A stretch of DNA of 64,000 nt from Amphiscolops sp. MND2022 (lineage: Eukaryota): contig OZ076409.1 in NCBI GenBank assembly GCA_964187785.1, forward strand, positions 16,246,001 through 16,310,000, read 5' to 3'. The notes beneath the pieces are model-generated. The model was given only the letters and a program-made list of their open reading frames with translations, made no database searches and was not told where the DNA came from. Position 1 is the stretch's first letter. Each line of letters begins with the position of its first letter. Shown here piece by piece: positions 1 to 28,639 of this stretch. The position numbers and the translations under genes are program-made.

Positions 1-480
1 ATGCTAAAAACCACCAAATTTACACTATTAATCTGGAGAATAAAACTGTACAAGTTTTCACTGCAGTTGAAAACTTATACAATGAAAACGAAAACTAAAC
101 TGAAAAAATTCGGACCTTTTTGACTGGAACTTTAAAGTTCTAAATCTCTACAATACCATCATCAATCAACCCAATTCCCAATTCTTTTCGAGCACTAGTT
201 GTTCGCAACCTGTATGCAAAAAACGGGTTTTGAGAACAAACTCCTTCCAGGAGCAAACATCTTTTTTCATACATTCTCCAAACTACATTATACTAACTTC
301 ATACCAAAAAAAAACATTCCCATTTTGGCGCTTTCTCAAAAATGCCATAACCAAGCATCTTCATCTACATACTTAAGTTTTTTCAACACTTCAGTTACTC
401 ATATACTCATTTTATACATATACCTTAGACTTCATTACTTTTTACTTGTAAATTCTCAGTTTTCAATAAATTCTTTAAAA
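1..480 (+). mobile_element. 3' end of ORF1-only element family A (cut by window start)
   Basis: Matches the 3' end of the A copy at 3935-5917; ORF stop TAA at 96-98; ends AATAAATTCTTTAAAA directly before an SL copy. Confidence 0.9.
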
Positions 481-590
481 GCCTAATTGTTGTGATAAAC
501 TTATTAAATAGGTAAGTATTCCAACCCTATTGATAAGTTTTATTTGAAAGCAGACTGCGAAAGTGGTCTGCTGCCCAATTTTTGAACAAG
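481..590 (+). ncRNA. Putative spliced-leader (SL) RNA (regenerated downstream of an insert; 3' end approximate)
   Basis: Exon 481-511; donor AG|GTAAGT at 512; stem I AAACTTATTAAATAGG/CCTATTGATAAGTTT; stem II AGCAGACTGC-GAAA-GTGGTCTGCT at 549-572; Sm site AATTTTTGA at 577-585. Confidence 0.8.
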
Positions 591-679
591 GAACAAGCTA
601 GTCTGCACTAACTTAAAAGTTACGCGTATTTTGACCGAGAAAATTTTCGTATCATTGTACGTAATTTTGTTGTTAAGCA

Positions 680-706: not shown

Positions 707-825
707 GGCTACGACCATACCATGTTGAATGCACCGGTTCTCGTCCGATCACCGAAGTTAAACAACATAGGGCCTGGTTAGTACTTGGATGGGAGACCGC
801 TTGGGAACACCAGGTGTTGTAGCCT
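707..825 (+). rRNA. 5S rRNA
   Basis: GGCTACGACCATACC...GGTTAGTACTTGGATGGGAGACC...GTGTTGTAGCCT; terminal stem GGCTAC/GTAGCC; followed by a T-run. Confidence 0.97.
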
Positions 826-1384: not shown

Positions 1385-1401
1385 GCCTAATTGTTGTGAT
1401 A

Positions 1402-3005
1402 CTGCGTGTGTCAGCAATTATTTGCTAACTCTACTCTCACTGCTGCGGCAGAGAAGACGAAAATTACCTGAACAATGCCTTTATTGACAGCAGAATTCAT
1501 CATTCCTTACACAAAAGAAGAAATTACCAGCCCAAACATAAAGCAAGCTGTTTACAAAGAATTCCTTTGCAAGCTTTTACATGCTTTATCGCCTACTCAT
1601 ATTGACAGCGTGACATGCATTAAATCGTATGTGTCCAAACATGCGCCAGCGCATGAGCATGAAAAGAAGCTTGAATGCATCAAAATTATTGCTCCAAACT
1701 CGATAGAAAACGACTTCAAAAACCTACTTCTTAAAGGAATTCCTTACAAAAACCGGATAATTTATGCATTCCAAAACAGTGATGTTTATTCTAACTCCTA
1801 CCCAAAGCAATTCACTTTGAAATTCCGCAATTTACCACACTTTTTAGAAGATGGAGAGATCGTGGAGGCTTGTAATCTGCAAGAGTACAAAATTTCCAAA
1901 TTACGCCACCAAAGAGTAAGAATTTCTGACGACATCGAAGCCTTTACTGGAATCTGTTATGCTGAAATAGAGATTGCCAATCAATGCCAATTAGAAAACA
2001 TCAAATCATGGAACCAACAAGCCTTTTTGAACCAGTTTGTTACTAATGAAATTCCCTTCAAATGTTACATTCAAACCTTGTTACAATGTGAGAATTGTAA
2101 CGAAGGAAAACGCCAATTTATGGGCCATCATAAGAAGCAATGCAAACATCACTCAACACAAAAAAACAATCTTAGCAATGAAGATACTGAGCCAATACCT
2201 TCTGAGGAGGAGGAGGAGTCAGCTGATGAACCTGAAAACAAAGCCACGAAAGTGGATCCCGATATTGCTTTTTTACCGTTTTACCTCGATGTGGACAACG
2301 AAATTATTCAGACTGTCAACAGAATGGAATCAAAATATCCTAAACTAGCAGAATGTGATCACAAAGGAGGTGATATCAACATCATTAACGATAAAAAAGT
2401 TGTTGTTAACCAACTAAGATATGTCCAAAAACTATCGGAATCAGCACAACAAGAGATGTTTGAAGACAAAGAGTGGAGAAGCCGAACCTCCTCTTCAAAG
2501 ATCGCCAACTACGATGCCTTCAAATACATCAAAGGAAGACTGGATGCCTTCTTTTACAAACCCGAGAACATCATTTATTTAGTAAATCTCCAAGGAAAAG
2601 TTAGATATGACTTTATCCCATTTGAAAAACAAGATTGATGCTATTTTTTGTAACAAACACAAATAACTCAAAACCCACTCCTTGATATGCTACACCCTCA
2701 AATCCCAAGTCTTTTAAAGTTCAATACCATGCTATTAAAATAGCCAAAAAACAGTTTGATCCAATAACTCCATCCAGGAGCAAACATCACTTTTACCCCA
2801 CATACTCAAGACTACATTATGCTAATTTCTTCAAAAAAAACAACGTTCTTTTTTGCTTGAACTTTCAAACAAGCTTCCATTTTTCACTCAGTACTTTTTC
2901 ATACTCTTATACAGTACTTTGTACACCTTTTATACCGTTTATATCTTTTATACAATTTATACTAACATTTTTGTTAGCGTAAAGTTTACAATAAAGTCTT
3001 CAAAA
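1402..3005 (+). mobile_element. ORF1-only non-autonomous retroelement, family B
   Basis: Flanked by the 17-bp duplication GCCTAATTGTTGTGATA (1385-1401 / 3006-3022); single ORF; ends AATAAAGTCTTCAAAA. Confidence 0.88.
1475..2638 (+). CDS. ORF1-like protein, family B (387 aa; CX2CX9HX4C knuckle, acidic linker, extra C-terminal domain)
   Basis: ATG-initiated ORF; YPKQFTLKFRNLP and CENCNEGKRQFMGHHKKQC align by eye with the autonomous ORF1. Confidence 0.85.
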   Translation: MPLLTAEFIIPYTKEEITSPNIKQAVYKEFLCKLLHALSPTHIDSVTCIKSYVSKHAPAHEHEKKLECIKIIAPNSIENDFKNLLLKGIPYKNRIIYAFQNSDVYSNSYPKQFTLKFRNLPHFLEDGEIVEACNLQEYKISKLRHQRVRISDDIEAFTGICYAEIEIANQCQLENIKSWNQQAFLNQFVTNEIPFKCYIQTLLQCENCNEGKRQFMGHHKKQCKHHSTQKNNLSNEDTEPIPSEEEEESADEPENKATKVDPDIAFLPFYLDVDNEIIQTVNRMESKYPKLAECDHKGGDINIINDKKVVVNQLRYVQKLSESAQQEMFEDKEWRSRTSSSKIANYDAFKYIKGRLDAFFYKPENIIYLVNLQGKVRYDFIPFEKQD

Positions 3006-3115
3006 GCCTAATTGTTGTGATAAACTTATTAAATAGGTAAGTATTCCAACCCTATTGATAAGTTTTATTTGAAAGCAGACTGCGAAAGTGGTCTGCTGCC
3101 CAATTTTTGAACAAG
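3006..3115 (+). ncRNA. Putative SL RNA copy (downstream of insert)
   Basis: Same sequence as 481-590. Confidence 0.75.
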
Positions 3116-3231
3116 GAACAAGCTAGTCTGCACTAACTTAAAAGTTACGCGTATTTTGACCGAGAAAATTTTCGTATCATTGTACGTAATTTTGTTGTTA
3201 AGCATATAAAGCTATTGATTCTACAATGATC

Positions 3232-3350
3232 GGCTACGACCATACCATGTTGAATGCACCGGTTCTCGTCCAATCACCGAAGTTAAACAACATAGGGCCT
3301 GGTTAGTACTTGGATGGGAGACCGCTTGGGAACACCAGGTGTTGTAGCCT
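3232..3350 (+). rRNA. 5S rRNA
   Basis: Near-identical to 707-825 (one substitution, GTCCAATC). Confidence 0.96.
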
Positions 3351-3934
3351 TTTTTGTCAGAAATGTGGTTTAACTTCGGTGACAGTTTTGCAAAAGGGGT
3401 CAAATTGAAAAGATAGCGAAAAACGGACAACGCCATTAGAAAGAGCGTCCAAAAAAACCCCCATGCTGAAATTTTCGCCGCCATCACTTGAATTTTCATT
3501 GAGTTATGTCATTTTTACTATTTTCACAAAATGTGGTTTAACTTCGGTGACAGTTTTGCAAAAGGGGTCAAAATGAACAGATAGCAAAAAACGGACAACG
3601 GCACTGGAAAGAGGGCCCAAAATTACCCCTAAAACGTGTTTTTCACACTCCTGAGTCGACTTTTGATAATACATGTAATTTCATTTTTAAGCTGACTAAT
3701 TTATGCTTTTCAGCATACATTTTCGTAATAGAGTCAAAATTTTGCTCACAAATTTTCTCACAATTTTTCTGGAATATTTTTGTTTCATCAGATGTCAATA
3801 ACTTGAAACGTCGTCTTTTCATGAGAATTTCTCCTCAAAACAAGTTGTTGGCTGGTAATGGTAAGTCCGTACCGCAGATAGGACTCTCGCGCTCCAAAAA
3901 TTGACTCTTTGCTTTTAGCCTAATTGTTGTGATA

Positions 3935-5917
3935 CGGCGTTACTCTGTCAGCCTGCAAACTTTGTTTGCACAGCGCCATCTTGCAAATTTTGCAGCAAAA
4001 GTTGCAAAAGTAATGACTAATTTGAACACGAGTGAGCTTGATCAACATCATAATGAAAATGTTGAGCAAAATTGTTACAAAAATGCAGTTATTTCCTTGT
4101 CGAAATCGAACTCAAATATGGACAAATTACCAATTATTATCAACTTTGCCTTACCACTGACATCTGAAATGTTCAAAAACAGCAAATTACTGGATTCAAT
4201 GTTTGTGGAAGCTGTTATGGCCGTCAAAAACCGACTTAACTCCAATGAAATTACCATCTTCAAAACTACAATTTTACGCAACAAAGGCAATTTGAAGTGT
4301 ATTACTGTGATCATTCCTTACAAACTTGAAAATGCAGCTTCCTCTCTTATTCACGAGGGCATTACTCTTCGCAATCGGAAAATACGGCCTTATTCTGTCA
4401 ATTATTCCAACCCGAACAACAATGTCTATCCAAAAAGATTACCAATATCTTTCCGAAACCTACCACACTTTCTGACGGATGAGGATATTTTGAGTAGCTG
4501 TGGTCTTCAAAACTTCAAATTTAGTAGCAAAAATTTTCATCAACAACGACGACTTCCTGATAGCAGCCTTTTTTATACAGGAGAGGCAAGAATTACAGTT
4601 TTAATTGACAATGAGAATGAGGAAAGTTTACTACAAAACTGGGCCAATAATGCATATGACAAAATGTTTAGTTCCAGTGGCATTTTTTTCAAATGTTGCT
4701 GTATCCCACTCCTCGAATGCTCTTTATGCGTCAATGAGAACCTTCCCAGTGCTCATCAACAATCAAGATGCCCAAAACAACTATCAGACGAACAGCAAAT
4801 ACAGAAAAACAGTGAATCTCAGAACCAGAAGTTAACAACTGACTACGTTATGGAAACTGCAGAAACAGAGCCAATGTCTAATGAACCTGAACTGTCAGAT
4901 TCAGATGATGCTGAACCAATCTCAAAGGCACCAAAGCAGACCGATGATGGTACTGAAACCGAATGCAACAACAACGTGGCAGAAACTGAACAACCATGCA
5001 TTAACAACTCAAAGAAAGATACCATTCCTATGCAAAAACCTAAACTAATGCATCGCTCAACTGAATGGAAATCCTCAACAGACCTTGCCCGAAATCAAGC
5101 AGATGACCAACAGTCAACGGCAAAGCATGGATATCATGAATACCCATTCTTTTTGGAAAAGAAACAAAACAAAATACTGACACCCGAAACTATTTTCAAC
5201 GAAATACCTCCTATAAAAGAACATGTGATCAAAACCCAACAAACTTCTGGCTACATCAATACACTAGACAAGGAAAAGAAAATTCAAAGGACCTTTTCAC
5301 TCGTACAACCACTGAAGAAAGAAAAACTTGAAGATCTTTTATCTGAATCAAACTGGAAACATTCTGACTCTAACACTATTTTAACTTCTCATTTTGAATT
5401 TTACTCATTGATCCGGAAGTTTGATCCATTCTATGATGCTACAAACCACCAAATTTACACTATTAATCTGGAGAATAAAATTGTACAAGTTTTCACTGCA
5501 GTTGAAAACTTATACAATGAAAACAAAAACTAAACTGAAAAATTTCGGACCTTTTTGACTGGAACTTTAAAGTTCTAAATCTCTACAATACCATCATCAA
5601 TCAACCCAATTCCCAATTCTTTTCGAGCACTAGTTGCTCGCAACCTGTATGCAAAAAACGGGTTTTGAAAACAAACTCCTTCCAGGAGCAAACATCTTTT
5701 TTTCATACATTCTCCAAACTACATTATACTAACTTCATACCTAAAAAAAAACATTCCCATTTTGGCGCTTTCTCAAAAATGCCATAACCAAGCATCTTCA
5801 TCTACATACTTCAGCTTTTTCAACACTTCAGTTACTCATATACTCATTTTATACCTATACCTTAGACTTCATTACTTTTTACTTGTAAATTCTCAGTTTT
5901 CAATAAATTCTTTAAAA
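3935..5917 (+). mobile_element. ORF1-only non-autonomous retroelement, family A
   Basis: 17-bp duplication at 3918-3934 / 5918-5934; ends AATAAATTCTTTAAAA. Confidence 0.9.
4013..5533 (+). CDS. ORF1-like protein, family A (506 aa from first ATG; the track's GTG start at 3929 lies in the SL duplication)
   Basis: YPKRLPISFRNLPHF, FYTGEARI, CSLCVNENLPSAHQQSRC knuckle; intact in 8 of 9 complete copies. Confidence 0.87.
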   Translation: MTNLNTSELDQHHNENVEQNCYKNAVISLSKSNSNMDKLPIIINFALPLTSEMFKNSKLLDSMFVEAVMAVKNRLNSNEITIFKTTILRNKGNLKCITVIIPYKLENAASSLIHEGITLRNRKIRPYSVNYSNPNNNVYPKRLPISFRNLPHFLTDEDILSSCGLQNFKFSSKNFHQQRRLPDSSLFYTGEARITVLIDNENEESLLQNWANNAYDKMFSSSGIFFKCCCIPLLECSLCVNENLPSAHQQSRCPKQLSDEQQIQKNSESQNQKLTTDYVMETAETEPMSNEPELSDSDDAEPISKAPKQTDDGTETECNNNVAETEQPCINNSKKDTIPMQKPKLMHRSTEWKSSTDLARNQADDQQSTAKHGYHEYPFFLEKKQNKILTPETIFNEIPPIKEHVIKTQQTSGYINTLDKEKKIQRTFSLVQPLKKEKLEDLLSESNWKHSDSNTILTSHFEFYSLIRKFDPFYDATNHQIYTINLENKIVQVFTAVENLYNENKN

Positions 5918-6027
5918 GCCTAATTGTTGTGATAAACTTATTAAATAGGTAAGTATTCCAACCCTATTGATAAGTTTTATTTGAAAGCAGACTGCGAAAG
6001 TGGTCTGCTGCCCAATTTTTGAACAAG
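5918..6027 (+). ncRNA. Putative SL RNA copy (downstream of insert)
   Basis: Same as 481-590. Confidence 0.75.
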
Positions 6028-6143
6028 GAACAAGCTAGTCTGCACTAACTTAAAAGTTACGCGTATTTTGACCGAGAAAATTTTCGTATCATTGTACGTA
6101 ATTTTGTTGTTAAGCATATAAAGCTATTGATTCTACAATGATC

Positions 6144-6262
6144 GGCTACGACCATACCATGTTGAATGCACCGGTTCTCGTCCGATCACCGAAGTTAAAC
6201 AACATAGGGCCTGGTTAGTACTTGGATGGGAGACCGCTTGGGAACACCAGGTGTTGTAGCCT
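6144..6262 (+). rRNA. 5S rRNA
   Basis: Same as 707-825. Confidence 0.97.
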
Positions 6263-6837
6263 TTTTTGTCAGAAATGTGGTTTAACTTCGGTGACAGTTT
6301 TGCAAAAGGGGTCAAATTGAAAAGATAGCAAAAAACGGACAACGCCATTAGAAAGAGCGTCCAAAAAACCCCCATGCTGAAATTTTCGCCGCCATCACTT
6401 GAATTTTCATTGAGTTATGTCATTTTTACTATTTTCACAAAATGTGGTTTAACTTCGGTGACAGTTTTGCAAAAGGGGTCAAAATGAACAGATAGCAAAA
6501 AACGGACAACGGCACTGGAAAGAGGGCCCAAAATTACCCCTAAAACGTGTTTTTCACACTCCTGAGTCGACTTTTGATAATACATGGAATTTCATTTCTA
6601 AGCTTACTAATTTATGCTTTTCAGCATACATTTTCGTAATAGAGTCAAAATTTTGCTTTCTCACAATTTTTCTGGAATATTTTTGTTTCATCAGATGTCA
6701 ATAACTTGAAACGTCGTCTTTTCATGAGAATTTCTCCTCAAAACAAGTTGTTGGCTGGTAATGGTAAGTCCGTACCGCAGATAGGACTCTCGCGCTCCAA
6801 AAATTGACTCTTTGCTTTTAGCCTAATTGTTGTGATA

Positions 6838-8265
6838 GCCGTGAACAGTTGACTTCTGACTTCTGACTTTCACGAAAAATTGCAAATGTCAACTGAAATA
6901 CCAAATCAAGTACGGAGCTATGCACAAATTCTTCATGAAAATTCAGCTAGTTTGCCTGTTTTTACCCCGATTATCGTTCGTTTCGTGTTACCAATTCCAA
7001 AAGAAATTTTACATAATGGCAAATTACTTGACAAACTGTTTATAGAATCCGTTATTGCTGTTCAAAAATGCTTACCAATTGCAAATGTTTCCCAAACAAC
7101 AATCTTTAAAAGTACAATCCAACGAAAAAAAGGAAACTTGAAAGCAATTACTGTTATTATCCCATCATTTTTGCGAAATGAAGCAAGAGAAATGTTAACT
7201 AAAGGTATTACAATGAACGGCAGAGTAATTCCTCCTTACTCCATTCATGACTCGTCAAAAACAGATGCTGATTACCCAAAAAACTTGAGAATTTCCTTTA
7301 GAAACATGCCTCATTGCATATCAAAAGAAGAAATAATTATATCTTGCGGATTAGAGGCTTTCAGGTTAGAAGAAATTGCTCATCAACAGAGACGGCTCCC
7401 TAATGGAAACCTGTTTTACACTGGTCTTGCCAGGGTGGAAGCTATTATTGCAAATCAAGAAGAGGAATGCAGACTTAAGGAATGGTCTAAACATGCAATC
7501 CAACAAACACTTTCTTGCAATGGAGCGACGTTTCAATGTTATTGCCCTTCCTTTACAGTTGCCAATGACCTGCAAAAAACCTCTGGTATGCATCACGAAC
7601 AATTATCAGAAGCCCCAGAACAAATGCAAGCTACAGAACCCTCAATTCAAAACGAAAACCAATCAGATCCCACAGCTAGTACCTCAAAAAAACCAGTGAA
7701 TTTCGAAGACGAAAATTTGGATTCCACTGGTGAAATAGACAATATTCAATCTGATCCGCCTGCTGAGGATTTAGAAAGTTCCTCATCTTGGGATGAAGAT
7801 TCATCTAAAAGTGGATCGTCAATTGAAAAACCTGCATCTAAAATCCAGAGGAGATCGTCACTCGAACAACTTACATCTAAAACCCAAAAGAGACATCAAC
7901 CGATCTATTATTATCATCGCGAACGAAAAACAATTCTTGATGAAAAAACGACATGGACTACTTACCCAGAGGCAAACTCTCTTCTAGATAACAAGCAGCT
8001 GATTCCTGTAGCACTTGTAACAGAAGAAGAACAAAGAATCATGTTTGAATATTTCCAATTTGGCTATAATTGAACTACTATCAGAAGATACGATGAATTT
8101 GCGATAATTAAAAGAAAATATAATGTATTCAGAATGCGTAAATATAAGAAAATTTTCTTTGTAAATCTCCGAGGTCAAGTCAAAAATGCCGTGATATTGG
8201 ATAAAATACTTTAGACCTCATTACCATTATACTTGTAAACTCTCAACAAAATAAATTCTTTAAAA
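6838..8265 (+). mobile_element. ORF1-only non-autonomous retroelement, family C (tandem with D)
   Basis: Duplication at 6821-6837 / 8266-8282; ends AATAAATTCTTTAAAA. Confidence 0.87.
6886..8073 (+). CDS. ORF1-like protein, family C; probable premature TGA (homologous frame continues to 8214)
   Basis: Clearly similar to family A (KGNLKAITVIIP, YPKNLRISFRNMPH, HQQRRLP, LFYTG); lacks the CX2C knuckle. Confidence 0.8.
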   Translation: MSTEIPNQVRSYAQILHENSASLPVFTPIIVRFVLPIPKEILHNGKLLDKLFIESVIAVQKCLPIANVSQTTIFKSTIQRKKGNLKAITVIIPSFLRNEAREMLTKGITMNGRVIPPYSIHDSSKTDADYPKNLRISFRNMPHCISKEEIIISCGLEAFRLEEIAHQQRRLPNGNLFYTGLARVEAIIANQEEECRLKEWSKHAIQQTLSCNGATFQCYCPSFTVANDLQKTSGMHHEQLSEAPEQMQATEPSIQNENQSDPTASTSKKPVNFEDENLDSTGEIDNIQSDPPAEDLESSSSWDEDSSKSGSSIEKPASKIQRRSSLEQLTSKTQKRHQPIYYYHRERKTILDEKTTWTTYPEANSLLDNKQLIPVALVTEEEQRIMFEYFQFGYN

Positions 8266-8282
8266 GCCTAATTGTTGTGATA

Positions 8283-9713
8283 CTGCGGTAGCAGCAATTA
8301 TTTGACCAAATTCATTCTCTCTCGCATCTGCTGAGGCAGGGACGATTATCTCACTTGAAAGAATGCCTAATTTCCTTACATTGGACTTTATAATACCTTA
8401 CTCCAAAGAAGAAATTACTAATCCTTCTCTAAAGCTTGTTACTTACAAAAGCTTTCTTTGCTCGTTACTTAAATGTTTACCTAGTGACGCTGTTAAACGC
8501 GTGACCTGCATGAAATCGCACGTGTACAAACATGCGCCGCACGAAAAGAAACTTGAGAGCGTCAAAGTTATCGGTCCAATTTCATTACAAAACGAGTTTA
8601 ATTCCATTATTTCTGATGGAATTTTGTTCAAAAATCGCAAGATTTATGCTCTACAAAACCATGATGTTACGTCCAATGCTTACCCCAAGCAATTTACGAT
8701 CAAATTTTGTAATTTACCACACTTCTTTCCTGATACCGATGTTATTTCGGCTTGCAATTTGAAAGATTTCAAACTTTCAAAGTTACGACACCAATTAGAG
8801 AAACTTTCTGAGGAAATTGAAACCTACACAGGCATTTGTTATGCGGATGTGGAAATCCAGGACGAAGCCCAATTACAACAGCTCATTTCATGGAATGAAA
8901 CCAGCTTTTTGAACAAATACTATCTAGAAGAAATTCCATTTAAATGCCAAATTCAAACATTACTACAATGCGATTTCTGCAGACAAAAGAAGCTCCAGTT
9001 TTTGGGGCACCATGTACGCCAATGCAAAGCCAAAAAGACACAATTAGAACCAGAATCTGAGGAAGATAGCATCTCAACCACGAAAACAAATGAAGAAAAA
9101 GAACTAGAAGCCACAGATGCAAACAAGAACAACACAGAACATACTTTCTATATTGATTTAGAAAAATGCCAAATTCGAAACATACATGACATGGACGAAC
9201 TCCATAAAGGATTTAGCAAGCTTCTTGCTTTGCAGGAATGCAAGCCTGTGAATGTCTTGAATGACAACAATGTAGTGATAAATCAACTACGACATGTGAA
9301 GAATATTACTGAAGAAAAACAGCGGAAGCTTTTCAAACAACAAAACAGATGGGGAAGTCCTTCATCAGACGTCCCAATCAAGAACTTCTCAGAGTTTTGT
9401 GAACTCCGGGGAAAGCTAGATGTGTTCTACGACTCAACAAAAGGCGAAGAAACCCTTTACCTGATGAACCTATCCAAGAAAGTGACCCACATTTTCAAAA
9501 AGAAACAACAACCACACTAACAAAACTACATTATACTAATTTTCAAACTTTGATTTCCATGTTAAATCAAAACTCTCATATTATACAATCATCACCAAGT
9601 CTTTCATTTACTCAATACTATAAGTATGCTAAGTTATTCATACTCAACACTTTAGTATTAATGTAAAGACTATTTGATTTATAAAGGCAAATTTCCAAAT
9701 ACATTCTTTAAAA
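8283..9713 (+). mobile_element. ORF1-only non-autonomous retroelement, family D
   Basis: Duplication at 8266-8282 / 9714-9730; ends AATACATTCTTTAAAA. Confidence 0.88.
8363..9520 (+). CDS. ORF1-like protein, family D (385 aa)
   Basis: Close paralogue of B (FIIPYSKEEITNP, YPKQFT, CDFCRQKKLQFLGHHVRQC). Confidence 0.86.
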   Translation: MPNFLTLDFIIPYSKEEITNPSLKLVTYKSFLCSLLKCLPSDAVKRVTCMKSHVYKHAPHEKKLESVKVIGPISLQNEFNSIISDGILFKNRKIYALQNHDVTSNAYPKQFTIKFCNLPHFFPDTDVISACNLKDFKLSKLRHQLEKLSEEIETYTGICYADVEIQDEAQLQQLISWNETSFLNKYYLEEIPFKCQIQTLLQCDFCRQKKLQFLGHHVRQCKAKKTQLEPESEEDSISTTKTNEEKELEATDANKNNTEHTFYIDLEKCQIRNIHDMDELHKGFSKLLALQECKPVNVLNDNNVVINQLRHVKNITEEKQRKLFKQQNRWGSPSSDVPIKNFSEFCELRGKLDVFYDSTKGEETLYLMNLSKKVTHIFKKKQQPH

Positions 9714-10617: not shown

Positions 10618-10857
10618 GCCTAATTGTTGTGATAAACTTATTAAATAGGTAAGTATTCCAACCTTGGAATATTTCTTGCCTGTTTGAGGTGTGAATCACA
10701 CTTACTTATCAATAGGGCCCAAAAGCCAGTAACCAAAAACCAGTAACCAATAACCAACCTGTACTTACTGTTTGAAAGGTAAGTATTCCAACCCTATTGA
10801 TAAGTTTTATTTGAAAGCAGACTGCGAAAGTGGTCTGCTGCCCAATTTTTGAACAAG
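10618..10857 (+). pseudogene. SL RNA gene disrupted by a 113-bp insertion at the splice-donor loop
   Basis: Unit is 130 bp longer; AGGTAAGTATTCCAACC duplicated at 10647-10663 and 10777-10793. Confidence 0.75.
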
Positions 10858-11092: not shown

Positions 11093-11668
11093 TTTTTGTC
11101 AGAAATGTGGTTTAACTTCGGTGACAGTTTTGCAAAAGGGGTCAAATTGAAAAGATAGCAAAAAACGGACAACGCCATTAGAAAGAGCGTCCAAAAAAAC
11201 CCCCATGCTGAAATTTTCGCCGCCATCACTTGAATTTTCATTGAGTTATGTCATTTTTACTATTTTCACAAAATGTGGTTTAACTTCGGTGACAGTTTTG
11301 CAAAAGGGGTCAAAATGAACAGATAGCAAAAAACGGACAACGGCACTGGAAAGAGGGCCCAAAATTACCCCTAAAACGTGTTTTTCACACTCCTGAGTCG
11401 ACTTTTGATAATACATGAAATTTCATTTTTAAGCTTACTAATTTATGCTTTTCAGCATACATTTTCGTAATAGAGTCAAAATTTTGCTTTCTCACAATTT
11501 TTCTGGAATATTTTTGTTTCATCAGATGTCAATAACTTGAAACGTCGTCTTTTCATGAGAATTTCTCCTCAAAACAAGTTGTTGGCTGGTAATGGTAAGT
11601 CCGTACCGCAGATAGGACTCTCGCGCTCCAAAAATTGACTCTTTGCTTTTAGCCTAATTGTTGTGATA

Positions 11669-13649
11669 CGGCGTTACTCTGTCAGCCTGCAAACTTTGTT
11701 TGCACAGCGCCATCTTGCAAATTTTGCAGCAAAAGTTGCAAAAGTAATGACTAATTTGAACACGAGTGAGCTTGATCAACATCATAATGAAAATGTTGAG
11801 CAAAATTGTTACAAAAATGCAGTTATTTCCTTCTCGAAATCGAACTCAAATATGGACAAATTACCAATTATTATCAACTTTGCCTTACCACTGACATCTG
11901 AAATGTTCAAAAACAGCAAATTACTGGATTCAATGTTTGTGGAAGCTGTTATGGCCGTCAAAAACCGACTTAACTCCAATGAAATTACCATCTTCAAAAC
12001 TACAATTTTACGCAACAAAGGCAATTTGAAGTGTATTACTGTGATCATTCCTTACAAACTTGAAAATGCAGCTTCCTCTCTTATTCACGAGGGCATTACT
12101 CTTCGCAATCGGAAAATACGGCCTTATTCTGTCAATTATTCCAACCCGAACAACAATGTCTATCCAAAAAGATTACCAATATCTTTCCGAAACCTACCAC
12201 ACTTTCTGACGGATGAGGATATTTTGAGTAGCTGTGGTCTTCAAAACTTCAAATTTAGTAGCAAAATTTTTCATCAACAACGACGACTTCCTGTTAGCAG
12301 CCTTTTTTATACAGGAGAGGCAAGAATTACAGTTTTAATTGACAATGAGAATGAGGAAAGTTTACTACAAAACTGGGCCAATAATGCATATGACAAAATG
12401 TTTAGTTCCAGTGGCATTTTTTTCAAATGTTGCTGTATCCCACTCCTCGAATGCTCTTTATGCGTCAATGAGAACCTTCCCAGTGCTCATCAACAATCAA
12501 GATGCCCAAAACAACTATCAGACGAACAGCAAATACAGAAAAACAGTGAATCTCAGAACCAGAAGTTAACAACTGACTACGTTATGGAAACTGCAGAAAC
12601 AGAGCCAATGTCTAATGAACCTGAACTGTCAGATTCAGATGATGCTGAACCAATCTCAAAGGCACCAAAGCAGACCGATGATGGTACTGAAACCGAATGC
12701 AACAACAACGTGGCAGAAACTGAACAACCATGCATTAACAACTCAAAGAAAGATACCATTCCTATGCAAAAACCTAAACTAATGCATCGCTCAACTGAAT
12801 GGAAATCCTCAACAGACCTTGCCCGAAATCAAGCAGATGACCAACAGTCAACGGCAAAGCATGGATATCATGAATACCCATTCTTTTTGGAAAAGAAACA
12901 AAACAAAATACTGGCACCCGAAACTATTTTCAACGAAATACCTCCTATAAAAGAACATGTGATCAAAACCCAACAAACTTCTGGCTACATCAATACACTA
13001 GACAAGGAAAAGAAAATTCAAAGGACCTTTTCACTCGTACAACCACTGAAGAAAGAAAAACTCGAAGATCTTTTATCTGAATCAAACTGGAAACATTCTG
13101 ACTCTAACACTATTTTAACTTCTCATTTTGAATTTTACTCATTGATCCGGAAGTTTGATCCATTCTATGATGCTACAAACCACCAAATTTACACTATTAA
13201 TCTGGAGAATAAAATTGTACAAGTTTTCACTGCAGTTGAAAACTTATACAATGAAAACAAAAACTAAACTGAAAAATTTCGGACCTTTTTGACTGGAACT
13301 TTAAAGTTCTAAATCTCTACAATACCATCATCAATCAACCCAATTCCCAATTCTTTTCGAGCACTAGTTGTTCGCAACCTGTATGCAAAAAACGGGTTTT
13401 GAAAACAAACTCCTTCCAGGAGCAAACATCTTTTTTTCATACATTCTCCAAACTTCATTATACTAACTTCATACCAAAAAAAACATTCCCATTTTGGCGC
13501 TTTCTCAAAAATGCCATAACCAAGCATCTTCATCTACATACTTCAGCTTTTTCAACACTTCAGTTACTCATATACTCATTTTATACCTATACCTTAGACT
13601 TCATTACTTTTTACTTGTAAATTCTCAGTTTTCAATAAATTCTTTAAAA
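11669..13649 (+). mobile_element. Family A element
   Basis: Duplication at 11652 / 13650. Confidence 0.9.
11747..13267 (+). CDS. ORF1-like protein, family A
   Basis: Near-identical to 4013-5533. Confidence 0.87.
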   Translation: MTNLNTSELDQHHNENVEQNCYKNAVISFSKSNSNMDKLPIIINFALPLTSEMFKNSKLLDSMFVEAVMAVKNRLNSNEITIFKTTILRNKGNLKCITVIIPYKLENAASSLIHEGITLRNRKIRPYSVNYSNPNNNVYPKRLPISFRNLPHFLTDEDILSSCGLQNFKFSSKIFHQQRRLPVSSLFYTGEARITVLIDNENEESLLQNWANNAYDKMFSSSGIFFKCCCIPLLECSLCVNENLPSAHQQSRCPKQLSDEQQIQKNSESQNQKLTTDYVMETAETEPMSNEPELSDSDDAEPISKAPKQTDDGTETECNNNVAETEQPCINNSKKDTIPMQKPKLMHRSTEWKSSTDLARNQADDQQSTAKHGYHEYPFFLEKKQNKILAPETIFNEIPPIKEHVIKTQQTSGYINTLDKEKKIQRTFSLVQPLKKEKLEDLLSESNWKHSDSNTILTSHFEFYSLIRKFDPFYDATNHQIYTINLENKIVQVFTAVENLYNENKN

Positions 13650-13994: not shown

Positions 13995-14570
13995 TTTTTG
14001 TCAGAAATGTGGTTTAACTTCGGTGACAGTTTTGCAAAAGGGGTCAAATTGAAAAGATAGCAAAAAACGGACAACGGCACTGGAAAGAGGGCCCAAAATT
14101 ACCCCCATGCTGAAATTTTCGCCGCCATCACTTGAATTTTCATTGAGTTATGTCATTTTTACTATTTTCACAAAATGTGGTTTAACTTCGGTGACAGTTT
14201 TGCAAAAGGGGTCAAAATGAACAGATAGCAAAAAACGGACAACGGCACTGGAAAGAGGGCCCAAAATTACCCCTAAAACGTGTTTTTCACACTCCTGAGT
14301 CGACTTTTGATAATACATGGAATTTCATTTTTAAGCTTACTAATTTATGCTTTTCAGCATACATTTTCGTAATAGAGTCAAAATTTTGCTTTCTCACAAT
14401 TTTTCTGGAATATTTTTGTTTCATCAGATGTCAATAACTTGAAACGTCGTCTTTTCATGAGAATTTCTCCTCAAAACAAGTTGTTGGCTGGTAATGGTAA
14501 GTCCGTACCGCAGATAGGACTCTCGCGCTCCAAAAATTGACTCTTTGCTTTTAGCCTAATTGTTGTGATA

Positions 14571-16552
14571 CGGCGTTACTCTGTCAGCCTGCAAACTTTG
14601 TTTGCACAGCGCCATCTTGCAAATTTTGCAGCAAAAGTTGCAAAAGTAATGACTAATTTGAACACGAGTGAGCTTGATCAACATCATAATGAAAATGTTG
14701 AGCAAAATTGTTACAAAAATGCAGTTATTTCCTTGTCGAAATCGAACTCAAATATGGACAAATTACCAATTATTATCAACTTTGCCTTACCACTGACATC
14801 TGAAATGTTCAAAAACAGCAAATTACTGGATTCAATGTTTGTGGAAGCTGTTATGGCCGTCAAAAACCGACTTAACTCCAATGAAATTACCATCTTCAAA
14901 ACTACAATTTCACGCAACAAAGGCAATTTGAAGTGTATTACTGTGATCATTCCTTACAAACTTGAAAATGCAGCTTCTTCTCTTATTCACGAGGGCATTA
15001 CTCTTCGCAATCGGAAAATACGGCCTTATTCTGTCAATTATTCCAAACCGAACAACAATGTCTATCCAAAAAGATTACCAATATCTTTCCGAAACCTACC
15101 ACACTTTCTGACGGATGAGGATATTTTGAGTAGCTGTGGTCTTCAAAACTTCAAATTTAGTAGCAAAATTTTTCATCAACAACGACGACTTCCTGATAGC
15201 AGCCTTTTTTATACAGGAGAGGCAAGAATTACAGTTTTAATTGACAATGAGAATGAGGAAAGTTTACTACAAAACTGGGCCAATAATGCATATGACAAAA
15301 TGTTTAGTTCCAGTGGCATTTTTTTCAAATGTTGCTGTATCCCACTCCTCGAATGCTCTTTATGCGTCAATGAGAACCTTCCCAGTGCTCATCAACAATC
15401 AAGATGCCCAAAACAACTATCAGACGAACAGCAAATACAGAAAAACAGTGAATCTCAGAACCAGAAGTTAACAACTGACTACGTTATGGAAACTGCAGAA
15501 ACAGAGCCAATGTCTAATGAACCTGAACTGTCAGATTCAGATGATGCTGAACCAATCTCAAAGGCGCCAAAGCAGACCGATGATGGTACTGAAACCGAAT
15601 GCAATAACAACGTGGCAGAAACTGAACAACCATGCATTAACAACTCAAAGAAAGATACCATTCCTATGCAAAAACCTAAACTAATGCATCGCTCAACTGA
15701 ATGGGAATCCTCAACAGACCTTGCCCGAAATCAAGCAGATGACCAACAGTCAACGGCAAAGCATGGATATCATGAATACCCATTCTTTTTGGAAAAGAAA
15801 CAAAACAAAATACTGGCACCCGAAACTATTTTCAACGAAATACCTCCTATAAAAGAACATGTGATCAAAACCCAACAAACTTCTGGCTACATCAATACAC
15901 TAGACAAGGAAAAGAAAATTCAAAGGACCTTTTCACTCGTACAACCACTGAAGAAAGAAAAACTCGAAGATCTTTTATCTGAATCAAACTGGAAACATTC
16001 TGACTCTAACACTATTTTAACTTCTCATTTTGAATTTTACTCATTGATCCGGAAGTTTGATCCATTCTATGATGCTACAAACCACCAAATTTACACTATT
16101 AATCTGGAGAATAAAATTGTACAAGTTTTCACTGCAGTTGAAAACTTATACAATGAAAACAAAAACTAAACTGAAAAATTTCGGACCTTTTTGACTGGAA
16201 CTTTAAAGTTCTAAATCTCTACAATACCATCATCAATCAACCCAATTCCCAATTCTTTTCGAGCACTAGTTGTTCGCCACCTGTATGCAAAAAATGGGTT
16301 TTGAGAACAAACTCCTTCCAGGAGCAAACATCTTTTTTTCATACATTCTCCAAACTACATTATACTAACTTCATACCAAAAAAAAACATTCCCATTTTGG
16401 CGCTTTCTCAAAAATGCCATAACCAAGCATCTTCATCTACATACTTCAGCTTTTTCAACACTTCAGTTACTCATATACTCATTTTATACATATACCTTAG
16501 ACTTCATTACTTTTTACTTGTAAATTCTCAGTTTTAAATAAATTCTTTAAAA
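14571..16552 (+). mobile_element. Family A element
   Basis: Duplication at 14554 / 16553. Confidence 0.9.
14649..16169 (+). CDS. ORF1-like protein, family A
   Basis: Near-identical to 4013-5533. Confidence 0.87.
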   Translation: MTNLNTSELDQHHNENVEQNCYKNAVISLSKSNSNMDKLPIIINFALPLTSEMFKNSKLLDSMFVEAVMAVKNRLNSNEITIFKTTISRNKGNLKCITVIIPYKLENAASSLIHEGITLRNRKIRPYSVNYSKPNNNVYPKRLPISFRNLPHFLTDEDILSSCGLQNFKFSSKIFHQQRRLPDSSLFYTGEARITVLIDNENEESLLQNWANNAYDKMFSSSGIFFKCCCIPLLECSLCVNENLPSAHQQSRCPKQLSDEQQIQKNSESQNQKLTTDYVMETAETEPMSNEPELSDSDDAEPISKAPKQTDDGTETECNNNVAETEQPCINNSKKDTIPMQKPKLMHRSTEWESSTDLARNQADDQQSTAKHGYHEYPFFLEKKQNKILAPETIFNEIPPIKEHVIKTQQTSGYINTLDKEKKIQRTFSLVQPLKKEKLEDLLSESNWKHSDSNTILTSHFEFYSLIRKFDPFYDATNHQIYTINLENKIVQVFTAVENLYNENKN

Positions 16553-16897: not shown

Positions 16898-17473
16898 TTT
16901 TTGTCAGAAATGTGGTTTAACTTCGGTGACAGTTTTGCAAAAGGGGTCAAATTGAAAAGATAGCAAAAAACGGACAACGCCATTAGAAAGAGCGTCCAAA
17001 AAAACCCCCATGCTGAAATTTTCGCCGCCATCACTTGAATTTTCATTGAGTTATGTCATTTTTACTATTTTCACAAAATGTGGTTTAACTTCGGTGACAG
17101 TTTTGCAAAAGGGGTCAAAATGAACAGATAGCAAAAAACGGACAACGGCACTGGAAAGAGGGCCCAAAATTACCCCTAAAACGTGTTTTTCACACTCCTG
17201 AGTCGACTTTTGATAATACATGGAATTTCATTTTTAAGCTTACTAATTTATGCTTTTCAGCATACATTTTCGTAATAGAGTCAAAATTTTGCTTTCTCAC
17301 AATTTTTCTGGAATATTTTTGTTTCATCAGATGTCAATAACTTGAAACGTCGTCTTTTCATGAGAATTTCTCCTCAAAACAAGTTGTTGGCTGGTAATGG
17401 TAAGTCCGTACCGCAGATAGGACTCTCGCGCTCCAAAAATTGACTCTTTGCTTTTAGCCTAATTGTTGTGATA

Positions 17474-18904
17474 CTGCGGTAGCAGCAATTATTTGACCAA
17501 ATTCATTCTCTCTCGCATCTGCTGAGGCAGGGACGATTATCTCACTTGAAAGAATGCCTAATTTCCTTACATTGGACTTTATAATACCTTACTCCAAAGA
17601 AGAAATTACTAATCCTTCTATAAAGCTTGTTACTTACAAAAGCTTTCTTTGCTCGTTACTTAAATGTTTACCTAGTGACGCTGTTAAACGCGTGACCTGC
17701 ATGAAATCGCACGTGTACAAACATGCGCCGCACGAAAAGAAACTTGAGAGCGTCAAAGTTATCGGTCCAATTTCATTACAAAACGAGTTTAATTCCATTA
17801 TTTCTGATGGAATTTTGTTCAAAAATCGCAAGATTTATGCTCTGCAAAACCATGATGTTACGTCCAATGCTTACTCCAAGCAATTTACGATCAAATTTCG
17901 TAATTTACTACACTTCTTTCCTGATACCGATGTTATTTCGGCTTGCAATTTGAAAGATTTCAAACTTTCAAAGTTACGACACCAATTAGAGAAACTTTCT
18001 GAGGAAATTGAAACCTACACAGGCATTTGTTATGCGGATGTGGAAATCCAGGACGAAGCCCAATTACAACAGCTCATTTCATGGAATGAAACCAGCTTTT
18101 TGAACAAATACTATCTAGAAGAAATTCCATTTAAATGCCAAATTCAAACATTACTACAATGCGATTTCTGCAGACAAAAGAAGCTCCAGTTTTTGGGGCA
18201 CCATGTACGCCAATGCAAAGCCAAAAAGACACAATTAGAACCAGAATCTGAGGAAGATAGCATCTCAACTACGAAAACAAATGAAGAAAAAGAACTAGAA
18301 GCCACAGATGCAAACAAGAATAACCCAGAACATACTTTCTATATTGATTTAGAAAAATGCCAAATTCGAAACATACATGACATGGACGAACTCCATAAAG
18401 GATTTAGCAAGCTTCTTGCTTTACAGGAATGCAAGCCTGTGAATGTCTTGAATGACAACAATGTAGTGATAAACCAACTACGACATGTGAAGAATATTAC
18501 TGAAGAAAAACAGCGGAAGCTTTTCAAACAACAAAACAGATGGGGAAGTCCTTCATCAGACGTCCCAATCAAGAACTTCTCAGAGTTTTGTGAACTCCGG
18601 GGAAAGCTAGATGTGTTCTACGACTCAACAAAAGGCGAAGAAACCCTTTACCTGATGAACCTATCCAAGAAAGTGACCCACATTTTCAAAAAGAAACAAC
18701 AACCAAACTAACAAAACTACATTATACTAATTTTCAAACTTTGATTTCCATGTTAAATCAAAACTCTCATATTATACAATCATCACCAAGTCTTTCATTT
18801 ACTCAATACTATAAGTATGCTAAGTTATTCATACTCAACACTTTAGTATTAATGTAAAGACTATTTGATTTATAAAGGCAAATTTTCAAATACATTCTTT
18901 AAAA
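17474..18904 (+). mobile_element. Family D element
   Basis: Duplication at 17457 / 18905. Confidence 0.88.
17554..18711 (+). CDS. ORF1-like protein, family D
   Basis: Near-identical to 8363-9520. Confidence 0.86.
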   Translation: MPNFLTLDFIIPYSKEEITNPSIKLVTYKSFLCSLLKCLPSDAVKRVTCMKSHVYKHAPHEKKLESVKVIGPISLQNEFNSIISDGILFKNRKIYALQNHDVTSNAYSKQFTIKFRNLLHFFPDTDVISACNLKDFKLSKLRHQLEKLSEEIETYTGICYADVEIQDEAQLQQLISWNETSFLNKYYLEEIPFKCQIQTLLQCDFCRQKKLQFLGHHVRQCKAKKTQLEPESEEDSISTTKTNEEKELEATDANKNNPEHTFYIDLEKCQIRNIHDMDELHKGFSKLLALQECKPVNVLNDNNVVINQLRHVKNITEEKQRKLFKQQNRWGSPSSDVPIKNFSEFCELRGKLDVFYDSTKGEETLYLMNLSKKVTHIFKKKQQPN

Positions 18905-20154: not shown

Positions 20155-20730
20155 TTTTTGTCAGAAATGTGGTTTAACTTCGGTGACAGTTTTGCAAAAG
20201 GGGTCAAATTGAAAAGATAGCAAAAAACGGACAACGCCATTAGAAAGAGCGTCCAAAAAAACCCCCATGCTGAAATTTTCGCCGCCATCACTTGAATTTT
20301 CATTGAGTTATGTCATTTTTACTATTTTCACAAAATGTGGTTTAACTTCGGTGACAGTTTTGCAAAAGGGGTCAAAATGAACAGATAGCAAAAAACGGAC
20401 AACGGCACTGGAAAGAGGGCCCAAAATTACCCCTAAAACGTGTTTTTCACACTCCTGAGTCGACTTTTGATAATACATGGAATTTCATTTTTAAGCTTAC
20501 TAATTTATGCTTTTCAGCATACATTTTCGTAATAGAGTCAAAATTTTGCTTTCTCACAATTTTTCTGGAATATTTTTGTTTCATCAGATGTCAATAACTT
20601 GAAACGTCGTCTTTTCATGAGAATTTCTCCTCAAAACAAGTTGTTGGCTGGTAATGGTAAGTCCGTACCGCAGATAGGACTCTCGCGCTCCAAAAATTGA
20701 CTCTTTGCTTTTAGCCTAATTGTTGTGATA

Positions 20731-20795
20731 CTTTGTATTACATTTGTGATTACTTTGTATTTGTAAATCTTCAGGTTTAAATAAATTCTTTAAAA
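20731..20795 (+). mobile_element. 65-bp mini-insert (5'-truncated or minimal non-coding retroelement)
   Basis: Full 17-bp duplication at 20714-20730 / 20796-20812; ends TTGTAAA...AATAAATTCTTTAAAA. Confidence 0.8.
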
Positions 20796-20812
20796 GCCTA
20801 ATTGTTGTGATA

Positions 20813-22795
20813 CGGCGTTACTCTGTCAGCCTGCAAACTTTGTTTGCACAGCGCCATCTTGCAAATTTTGCAGCAAAAGTTGCAAAAGTAATGACTAATT
20901 TGAACACGAGTGAGCTTGATCAACATCATAATGAAAATGTTGAGCAAAATTGTTACAAAAATGCAGTTATTTCCTTGTCGAAATCGAACTCAAATATGGA
21001 CAAATTACCAATTATTATCAACTTTGCCTTACCACTGACATCTGAAATGTTCAAAAACAGCAAATTACTGGATTCAATGTTTGTGGAAGCTGTTATGGCC
21101 GTCAAAAACCGACTTAACTCCAATGAAATTACCATCTTCAAAACTACAATTTTACGCAACAAAGGCAATTTGAAGTGTATTACTGTGATCATTCCTTACA
21201 AACTTGAAAATGCAGCTTCCTCTCTTATTCACGAGGGCATTACTCTTCGCAATCGGAAAATACGGCCTTATTCTGTCAATTATTCCAACCCGAACAACAA
21301 TGTCTATCCAAAAAGATTACCAATATCTTTCCGAAACCTACCACACTTTCTGACGGATGAGGATATTTTGAGTAGCTGTGGTCTTCAAAACTTCAAATTT
21401 AGTAGCAAAATTTTTCATCAACAACGACGACTTCCTGATAGCAGCCTTTTTTATACAGGAGAGGCAAGAATTACAGTTTTAATTGACAATGAGAATGAGG
21501 AAAGTTTACTACAAAACTGGGCCAATAATGCATATGACAAAATGTTTAGTTCCAGTGGCATTTTTTTCAAATGTTGCTGTATCCCACTCCTCGAATGCTC
21601 TTTATGCGTCAATGAGAACCTTCCCAGTGCTCATCAACAATCAAGATGCCCAAAACAACTATCAGACGAACAGCAAATACAGAAAAACAGTGAATCTCAG
21701 AACCAGAAGTTAACAACTGACTACGTTATGGAAACTGCAGAAACAGAGCCAATGTCTAATGAACCTGAACTGTCAGATTCAGATGATGCTGAACCAATCT
21801 CAAAGGCACCAAAGCAGACCGATGATGGTACTGAAACCGAATGCAACAACAACGTGGCAGAAACTGAACAACCATGCATTAACAACTCAAAGAAAGATAC
21901 CATTCCTATGCAAAAACCTAAACTAATGCATCGCTCAACTGAATGGAAATCCTCAACAGACCTTGCCCGAAATCAAGCAGATGACCAACAGTCAACGGCA
22001 AAGCATGGATATCATGAATACCCATTCTTTTTGGAAAAGAAACAAAACAAAATACTGGCACCCGAAACTATTTTCAACGAAATACCTCCTATAAAAGAAC
22101 ATGTGATCAAAACCCAACAAACTTCTGGCTACATCAATACACTAGACAAGGAAAAGAAAATTCAAAGGACCTTTTCACTCGTACAACCACTGAAGAAAGA
22201 AAAACTCGAAGATCTTTTATCTGAATCAAACTGGAAACATTCTGACTCTAACACTATTTTAACTTCTCATTTTGAATTTTACTCATTGATCCGGAAGTTT
22301 GATCCATTCTATGATGCTACAAACCACCAAATTTACACTATTAATCTGGAGAATAAAATTGTACAAGTTTTCACTGCAGTTGAAAACTTATACAATGAAA
22401 ACAAAAACTAAACTGAAAAATTTCGGACCTTTTTGACTGGAACTTTAAAGTTCTAAATCTCTACAATACCATCATCAATCAACCCAATTCCCAATTCTTT
22501 TCGAGCACTAGTTGTTCGCAACCTGTATGCAAAAAACGGGTTTTGAAAACAAACTCCTTCCAGGAGCAAACATCTTTTTTTCATACATTCTCCAAACTAC
22601 ATTATACTAACTTCATACCTAAAAAAAAACATTCCCATTTTGGCGCTTTCTCAAAAATGCCATAACCAAGCATCTTCATCTACATACTTCAGCTTTTTCA
22701 ACACTTCAGTTACTCATATACTCATTTTATACCTATACCTTAGACTTCATTACTTTTTACTTGTAAATTCTCAGTTTTCAATAAATTCTTTAAAA
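20813..22795 (+). mobile_element. Family A element
   Basis: Duplication at 20796 / 22796. Confidence 0.9.
20891..22411 (+). CDS. ORF1-like protein, family A
   Basis: Near-identical to 4013-5533. Confidence 0.87.
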   Translation: MTNLNTSELDQHHNENVEQNCYKNAVISLSKSNSNMDKLPIIINFALPLTSEMFKNSKLLDSMFVEAVMAVKNRLNSNEITIFKTTILRNKGNLKCITVIIPYKLENAASSLIHEGITLRNRKIRPYSVNYSNPNNNVYPKRLPISFRNLPHFLTDEDILSSCGLQNFKFSSKIFHQQRRLPDSSLFYTGEARITVLIDNENEESLLQNWANNAYDKMFSSSGIFFKCCCIPLLECSLCVNENLPSAHQQSRCPKQLSDEQQIQKNSESQNQKLTTDYVMETAETEPMSNEPELSDSDDAEPISKAPKQTDDGTETECNNNVAETEQPCINNSKKDTIPMQKPKLMHRSTEWKSSTDLARNQADDQQSTAKHGYHEYPFFLEKKQNKILAPETIFNEIPPIKEHVIKTQQTSGYINTLDKEKKIQRTFSLVQPLKKEKLEDLLSESNWKHSDSNTILTSHFEFYSLIRKFDPFYDATNHQIYTINLENKIVQVFTAVENLYNENKN

Positions 22796-28492: not shown

Positions 28493-28639
28493 CTAAGTTC
28501 AATTATATTTATATCTTGCAACCAATGAACCATTCACTTACTTTGATTAGCTACTGAATTGTCTGAATTATGAACTTGGTCTACGCTATTTGATTGATTC
28601 ATTTGTTCCTACTGATTTACTGTAATTAATTCTTTAAAA

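Follow-up and report, generated by a model that had tools for sequence, protein, structure and literature searches.

ORF1-only elements in the spliced-leader RNA genes of Amphiscolops sp.: probably one old clade with an extra C-terminal domain, copied in trans by several helpers

Introduction

CRE/SLACS elements, found in trypanosomatids, target spliced-leader (SL) RNA genes. In nematodes, SL RNA genes receive insertions of NeSL, which uses a restriction-like endonuclease (PMC4640811; here and below, papers given by PMC number are drawn on in excerpt). Target-specific elements of the Tx1 clade include Keno (U2 small nuclear RNA, snRNA), Kibi, Koshi and Tx1-Mar, and their non-autonomous passengers, the SINEU elements, carry snRNA-derived heads (PMC4494074; PMC5203782). 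Non-autonomous elements consisting only of the first open reading frame (ORF1) of a long interspersed element (LINE) are already known. HAL1 (half-L1) of mammals encodes the ORF1 protein (ORF1p) only and has kept its coding capacity for 29–44 million years in guinea pig (PMC3627910; PMC5753468), and ORF1-only elements make up about 40% of Drosophila telomeric families, in which they form monophyletic groups of two to six families (PMC13534243). Here we describe four ORF1-only families, A to D, in a stretch of 64,000 nucleotides (‘the window’) of Amphiscolops sp. MND2022 (assembly GCA_964187785.1, contig OZ076409.1, positions 16,246,001 to 16,310,000 of the forward strand), together with the resident autonomous helper H1 and their relatives across the genome. 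Families A to D are SL-site elements that probably belong to one old clade with an extra C-terminal domain and are likely to be copied in trans by several SL-targeting helpers. The labels H1–H7, A–N and X1–X3, and those for loci (L###), contigs (C#) and database proteins (P000#), are our own.

Results

The window consists of tandem copies of a 904-bp unit, each of which contains a 5S ribosomal RNA (rRNA) gene and an SL RNA gene. The 31-nt SL exon is identical to the published SL of the acoel Symsagittifera roscoffensis (PMC9911081), an Sm-type U-rich site lies at about 577–585 (read by eye), and the fold of the SL RNA gene has a z score of −3.1. The original prediction, made from the sequence alone, had called the junctions precise and the lineages sequence-specific without naming the target, which is the SL RNA gene. 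All of the inserts, A to D and the helper alike, are found at one SL site and are flanked by paired SL exon starts (the first 17 nt; 13–17 bases across the inserts, and 10 in one helper copy). Each insert is preceded by the native SL upstream flank and, because the exon start is repeated on both sides, the whole SL coding sequence is present downstream of each insert or stack.

As first counted, ORF1-only elements outnumber the helper by 15 to 4: family A has nine whole copies and one cut by the window start, D has three, B and C have one each, and H1 has four. The ORF lengths and coordinates originally given for A to D were reproduced (Table 1). No endonuclease or reverse transcriptase (RT) match to Pfam was found in A to D, and the helper ORF2, full length in two of the four window copies, contains RVT_1, Exo_endo_phos and zf-RVT (the last below the curated Pfam cut-off). 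That the reading frames are maintained holds for eight of nine whole A copies, all three D copies and the single B copy, and fails for the single C copy. In this copy a TGA at 8071–8073 falls 46 codons early, the frame continues in register to 8214, and the sequence past the stop can be aligned to the terminal parts of A, B and D. Genome searches, each of which scored only about 100 candidates, recovered the window copy as the only near-identical copy of C; relatives on contig C5 are 83–85% identical and decayed, and the three that were aligned lack the window TGA but carry other stops. Family C thus stands for a lineage under selection, of which this one copy is broken.

The N-terminal region links A to D with the helper. 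Of the shared motifs listed originally, GIx6[IV], YP[KR] and [FY]xG are found in A to D and the helper, whereas ExxLxxW is confined to A, C and the helper and is missing from B and D; the CX2CX8-9HX4C knuckle occurs, as had been stated, in A, B, D and the helper, and has been lost in C, E and F. The pairing of B with D and of A with C was upheld, the identity of the N-terminal domain being 57% and 44%, respectively, and 18–20% to H1. RRM-like folds plus a zinc knuckle had been expected, and both are predicted: the AlphaFold2 model of B (six sequences) has two confident α/β domains (approximately residues 1–97 and 108–200), a knuckle and linker modelled with low confidence, and finally a third domain (approximately 265–385). 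Foldseek ranks tandem RRM proteins first among the matches to this model (nucleolin, HuD, Sxl; E 3e-5 to 1e-3). Look-alikes in the ESM Atlas are CCHC and ZCCHC3-type RRM proteins at 0.85–0.90, which are taken as a lead only. The H1 ORF1 has a knuckle and can be aligned over the length of the N-terminal domain of B, the protein modelled with two RRM-like domains. No Pfam match, including to Transposase_22, was obtained for the ORF1-only proteins, and the N-terminal profile had no match among PDB sequences and four among longer proteins. Judging by these models, the A–D-type protein is predicted to be a Type I ORF1 of L1/Tx1 elements (PMC5203782).

Descent was studied using an unrooted tree of the N-terminal domain, built from 21 genome-verified rows; eight database proteins, which come without DNA context, and families J, K, M, N and X2, whose sequences are partial or frameshifted, were left out. 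The nine ORF1-only families (9/9) fall on one side of the starred branch (support 95/96) and split into B/D/I and A/C/E/F/G/L. Their nearest rows are X1, X3 and L100, which are autonomous and lie away from SL sites, and the nearest autonomous ORF1s (X1 and X3) are 23–31% identical to the ORF1-only proteins. A 100/100 branch separates the ORF1-only families plus X1, X3 and L100 from seven SL helpers and two other autonomous families, and grouping H1 with the ORF1-only families is rejected by the approximately unbiased test (p-AU 1.75e-5). A to D are likely to belong to one old clade and not to represent four separate losses; a single loss of ORF2, supported by the shared C-terminal domain, is the simplest reading, not a proof. 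The X-type autonomous elements (L036, L037, L098, L099, L100) are clustered together in tandem, and not at SL sites.

The C-terminal domain, overlooked in the original prediction, is about 120 aa long, common to A to D and absent from H1. Modelled alone (14 sequences), it reaches a predicted local distance difference test score of 92 and a predicted template-modelling score of 0.84. It has no match in H1–H7 or the X elements, two chimeras excepted, and none of nine ORF2 sequences scored against its profile (best E 0.3). Among 1.84 billion representative proteins the profile found 17, of which 16 resemble this family or fragments of it and the other is a repeat protein. No Foldseek match at E ≤ 0.001 was found in PDB or BFVD, and the best VIA-align score among 48,161 chains was Z 4.3 (root-mean-square deviation, rmsd, 3.5; 69 aligned), with none at or above 5, which shows neither a new nor a different fold. 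The weaker matches, considered as hints of a NUMOD1/I-TevI-like DNA-binding module or a WWE domain, include the I-TevI DNA-binding domain (Z 3.1, rmsd 3.3, 44 aligned), sCTP-23166 (Z 3.3, rmsd 2.8, 48 aligned) and, weakly, the PARP13 WWE domain (E 1.3). None of the 14 members reached a Pfam cut-off, the best hit among PDB sequences was a designed repeat protein over 23 positions, and the ESM Atlas gave no usable match. Two further ideas were dropped, namely an internal two-fold repeat (hhalign probability 1.2%) and a relic of ORF2 (probability 0.2%). Only one position (Asn) is invariant in the 14 sequences and the net charge ranges from −8 to +6, which would fit an interaction module better than an enzyme. 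A predicted role, which we put forward tentatively, is that the domain helps the ribonucleoprotein (RNP) to engage a foreign ORF2 protein (ORF2p) against cis preference; this is favoured because only elements in need of a foreign ORF2p carry the domain, and nucleic-acid binding or oligomerisation are the alternatives.

The ends of the elements connect them to several helpers. The 23 tails compared end in a T(A/T)xA(T/G)TCTT(T/C)AAAA-type motif, with hardly any variation in the last 14 bases. Over the last 40 nt the tail of B equals that of H5 (40/40), A and E match H2 at 35/40 and 37/40, respectively, and the C13 form of A matches H6 at 33/40, the corresponding figure for A–D tails against H1 being only 19–22/40. 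The resident H1 is not the closest relative, and better tail matches are provided by H2, H5 and H6, from this array and others. Heads are also shared, and the 5′ untranslated regions (UTRs) of A, E and G are almost the same (94/95, 92/95) around ORFs that are 37–44% identical. Very short inserts consisting of a tail only were also seen, H2-type (65 bp, in the window) and H3-type (27 bp, L048:5110–5066), and may be either severely 5′-truncated copies or passengers of minimal size.

Insertions end at GCC(T). Outside the arrays four ectopic copies of family E were found, all of which end at GCC and three of which have the full 17-nt SL head in unrelated flanks. Two of the four are bracketed by duplications that start at GCC and have the head inside (304/307 bp, L031:2023–2329; 178/182 bp, L035:1980–2161), and all five empty-site copies confirm the 182-bp duplication at L035; a duplication of 4–5 bp at this locus was discarded, with no empty-site matches. 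These copies indicate that an ORF1-only element has retrotransposed and that the head belongs to its RNA, and they support movement in trans of transcripts made from the SL promoter. Addition of the head by trans-splicing was rejected, only 17 of the 31 exon bases being present; because trans-splicing would add all 31, the head probably derives from transcription that starts at the SL promoter, and dependence on a flanking promoter has been discussed for R2 and SINEU (PMC4494074). The duplications are 307 and 182 bp long off target and 13–17 bp in the array, which suggests a second-strand cut that is fixed at the true target but not elsewhere. On C7 (L087:5084 to L034:~4200) the autonomous H4 and a 5′-clipped ORF1-only G lie in tandem outside the arrays and share a single SL head and a single GCC end, as though a read-through RNA had carried both.

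The ratio of non-synonymous to synonymous divergence (dN/dS) was proposed originally as a check on selection. For B and D, dN is 0.32 and dS 1.39, giving a ratio of 0.23 (bootstrap confidence interval 0.10–0.37), which is not near 1. The ratio is 0.26 (0.15–0.39) for B and I and 0.12 for E and F, so that between-family values lie at 0.12–0.28 where dS is measurable, and three methods agree where they converge. Seven further comparisons, three of them in the C-terminal domain, are saturated at synonymous sites (proportion of differences, pS, >0.75), with a non-synonymous proportion (pN) of 0.18–0.46.

Across the genome, arrays are found on C1, C12, C13, C5 and small contigs; their positions include 15–17 Mb along a contig of 104 Mb and 13 Mb along one of 58 Mb. 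There are at least seven autonomous SL-targeting families (H1–H7) with an apurinic/apyrimidinic endonuclease (APE) and RT, whose family-specific heads share 13–17 bases with the SL, and further ORF1-only families are E, F, G, I and L plus decayed others. Family A has at least 42 whole copies that are 98–100% identical, family B has about 19, and the 3′ parts of H5 and H2 have four and two near-identical copies, with one H5 copy about 10 kb before the window. The search for ORF2-bearing versions of the families, suggested at the outset, found no such parent among the roughly 100 candidates scored in each genome search. The fetched, partly overlapping loci contain 133 matches to the C-terminal domain, 112 of which have an SL site downstream; in 107 of these it lies within 715 nt, leaving no room for ORF2, and the other 21 matches run to locus ends or are ectopic or chimeric. 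Locus L039, a family I copy followed by ORF2 sequence, was rejected as a parent, being a deletion fusion with decayed H4-like pieces. An in-frame chimera at L038:7169–5658 (C5), duplicated at a period near 3.07 kb, begins as an H3-like ORF1 and continues with a second RRM, a knuckle and a C-terminal domain that are B/D-like. No single-copy fixed gene was found in the genome searches.

Beyond this genome, the whole-protein profile matches eleven database clusters. Eight homologous database proteins were identified (P0003–P0010), five of whose representatives are on contigs of 1.4–1.65 kb. P0006 combines a B-like N-terminal part with a G-like C-terminal domain and is not in this genome (best 67%), so that the clade reaches beyond this assembly and exchanges domains. 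A metagenome scan for relatives gave 96 pattern matches, none of which was confirmed.

The features of the window are collected in Table 1. The spacer upstream of the SL gene has three variants among array units on contigs C1, C12 and C13/C610, unit lengths are near 904, 907 and 1074 bp, and A and B are present in all three spacer variants. At a second site, the SL splice donor, there is a 113-bp non-coding insert (10664–10776) that is flanked by 17-bp direct repeats and holds short reverse-complement pieces of the SL intron. It has 31 near-full matches in arrays on C1, C12, C13 and small contigs, along with shorter variants, and is possibly another small mobile element. At 3006–3130, as 3′ of every insert, a read-through transcript would terminate in a full SL RNA that includes the splice donor and an Sm-type site; it is a matter of speculation that a whole element might be trans-spliced onto host mRNAs via such a read-through SL RNA.

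Table 1. Positions of the SL RNA and 5S rRNA genes, ORF1-only elements and helper copies in the window
Feature	Position	Strand	Details
Family A copy, 3′ end, cut by window start	1–480	+	self-BLAST 98.9% to 5436–6837
SL RNA gene, first 904-bp unit	481–600	+	exon 481–511, donor GT at 512; target of all inserts
5S rRNA gene of unit	707–825	+	Rfam RF00001, 117.5 bits
Family B element	1385–3005	+	SL head 1385–1401 (17 nt); ORF 1475–2638 (387 aa); C-terminal domain ~2261–2635
Family A element	3918–5917	+	SL head 3918–3934; ORF 4013–5533 (506 aa); C-terminal domain ~5129–5530
Family C element	6821–8265	+	ORF 6886–8073 (395 aa); premature TGA within C-terminal domain; no zinc knuckle
Family D element	8266–9713	+	directly behind C at same site; ORF 8363–9520 (385 aa); C-terminal domain ~9128–9517
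Family A, intact	11652–13649, 14554–16552, 20796–22795, 32799–34798	+	ORF list, unit map
Family A, intact, further copies	51212–53215, 54120–56117, 57021–59021		ORF list, unit map
Family A, broken frame	48310–50309	+	296-aa and 167-aa pieces
Family D, intact	17457–18904, 30447–31894	+	
SL head + 65-bp insert	20714–20795	+	insert = 3′ tail of H2-type element (39/40)
Autonomous helper H1, intact	23700–28639	+	ORF1 23929–25260, without C-terminal domain; ORF2 25241–28492 (APE endonuclease, RT, zf-RVT)
H1 copy	36607–41553	+	ORF2 stops at 964 aa
H1 copy, shortened head	42457–47405	+	ORF2 frameshifted (981 aa)
H1 copy cut by window end	59926–64000	+	ORF2 1083 aa when read into next stretch

Discussion

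The original prediction of long-lived, sequence-specific ORF1-only lineages under selection agrees with the low or saturated between-family comparisons, the lack of an ORF2-bearing parent in the genome searches, and the predicted RRM domains and knuckle. A cycle can be proposed in which the RNA would be made from the promoter of the SL gene itself, starting at SL +1, and translated into a protein predicted to contain two RRMs, a knuckle and the C-terminal domain. This protein would coat its own RNA in cis, which would explain selection on the frame, and the ORF2p of a helper would then bind the borrowed tail. The most likely contribution of the C-terminal domain would be to aid the RNP in engaging this foreign ORF2p. 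Target-primed reverse transcription from a nick at the GCC(T) site would complete the cycle, rebuilding the whole SL coding sequence downstream. In a bolder version, which we consider rather unlikely, these elements are a self-propagating, protein-coding satellite clade: a non-SL ORF1 would have lost ORF2 once, gained an ORF2p-recruiting domain of new fold and taken the SL promoter, and would swap tails to track whichever helper is active. If true, such a clade would parallel, among LINEs, those satellite phages whose genomes carry a hijacking protein.

Several observations weigh against one old, trans-copied clade. Transcription, translation, packaging and contact with ORF2p are steps of the cycle that we infer; the tree is unrooted, and with the database proteins added support for the clade is 91/93, unstarred. 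Two chimeras (L038 and L039) join domain-bearing pieces to helper sequence. The tails of C and D match the nine autonomous tails at best at 24/40 and 28/40, the proof of jumping comes from family E and not from A to D, and two of the four ectopic E copies have no duplication within 400 bp. With regard to selection, most pairs are saturated in dS and codons were aligned by protein, which biases dN/dS downward. The ratio is 0.6–0.7 between E and E2, and comparisons within families reveal no selection: on small counts, the values for A, B and D are 1.24, 0.95 and 0.38, respectively, from shared variants and 0.73, 0.60 and 1.65 from singletons. No signal would be expected within families because the copies are young (<1% mean difference), yet this gives no support. 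Among distinct sequences, 4 of 20 for A and 4 of 22 for B have a broken frame, and family C lacks an intact copy.

Some of these points would suit a different account, in which array turnover, through unequal crossover and gene conversion, is now the main way that copies multiply and the protein persists because it serves the host, for example in binding autonomous SL invaders and holding them in check. All 42 whole A matches lie in array regions, the slight divergence among copies and the missing within-family signal would be expected of turnover, swapped heads and tails could be conversion tracts, and tandem duplications and deletions do occur in arrays. However, ectopic E copies have target-site duplications, the arrays on C1, C12 and C13 that hold A and B differ in their spacer variants, and the order in which different families are stacked at a single site varies; a protein serving the host is also at odds with the many families that turn over and decay as selfish elements do, and with the searches that returned no single-copy fixed gene. 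We regard this account as improbable. Still less probable, in our judgement, are separate losses of ORF2, as in HAL1, from autonomous parents that had this ORF1 and C-terminal domain and are now extinct, unassembled or in other acoels. HAL1 is reported to have arisen several times in mammals (PMC5753468) and ORF2 to have been lost dozens of times among Drosophila telomeric elements (PMC13534243); the limited number of candidates scored in the genome searches would also leave room for such parents, as would P0003–P0010, known as proteins without DNA context, and the absence of P0006 from this genome. Against this, about 12 autonomous families were seen in the genome, none of them with the domain or inside the clade, every parent would have to be missing, and five of the eight database representatives are on contigs of ORF1-only size, though these are possibly fragments. 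That A to D are recent internal deletions of the resident helper, which the original prediction had held to be incompatible with their divergence, is refuted: the insertion site, the last ~10 nt and the ORF1 motifs are held in common with H1, but the 18–20% ORF1 identity, the rejected grouping, the UTRs unlike those of H1 and the added domain all speak against it.

A trans-copied ORF1-only clade touches the open questions of how non-autonomous elements evade the cis preference of LINEs and why HAL1 and HeT-A keep ORF1. One site with at least nine related ORF1-only families, at least seven helpers, natural swaps of heads, tails and domains, and a domain confined to passengers makes the question directly testable. 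An RNA-gene-targeted system that moves 1.4–2 kb of protein-coding cargo in trans would also be relevant to site-specific gene insertion.

Comparison with known systems

In the literature covered, which excludes Repbase and most subscription journals, we found no SL-targeting or ORF1-only elements from acoels, no SL-targeting element of APE type, no tail-swapping ORF1-only clade with an ORF1 far from that of its helpers, and no passenger-specific domain. NeSL and CRE/SLACS are similar in inserting into SL RNA genes, but the helper described here has an N-terminal APE (Exo_endo_phos) and not a restriction-like endonuclease, so SL targeting is likely to have arisen independently. Helper H1 resembles the Tx1 clade in having APE, RT and zf-RVT together with an RRM/CCHC ORF1, and in targeting a multicopy RNA gene (4/4 window copies). 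This is a likeness of domains; helper homologues are mostly unnamed, none is labelled Tx1, and the excerpts of PMC4494074 and PMC5203782 describe no SL-targeting member of the clade. Like SINEU, the ORF1-only elements combine an RNA-gene head (17 nt of SL) with a LINE-like tail, but SINEU are short interspersed elements (SINEs), whereas the elements described here encode ORFs of 385–506 aa under purifying selection.

HAL1 is alike in that A to D encode ORF1p only, with a frame long maintained between families. It differs in that the ORF1 of A to D is Type I-like (two RRMs and CCHC, predicted) and not Transposase_22, and in that A to D are sequence-specific and have no poly(A) tail; moreover, they belong to one clade of at least nine families, with an added domain and with tails common to several helpers, and are not separate derivatives of a close parent. 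The closest ecological parallel is provided by the Drosophila telomeric elements: HeT-A and its relatives in the Jockey clade are also ORF1-only, lie in head-to-tail arrays and rely on the ORF2 of other families, a reliance to which the tails and ectopic copies point here. In this genome, however, insertion is into an endonuclease-cut RNA gene and not at a chromosome end, the helpers are L1/Tx1-like and are not the nearest ORF1 relatives, and no ORF1 domain specific to ORF1-only forms is described for the telomeric elements in the excerpt of PMC13534243. The elements of the SL array work like HAL1 or HeT-A and belong to neither.

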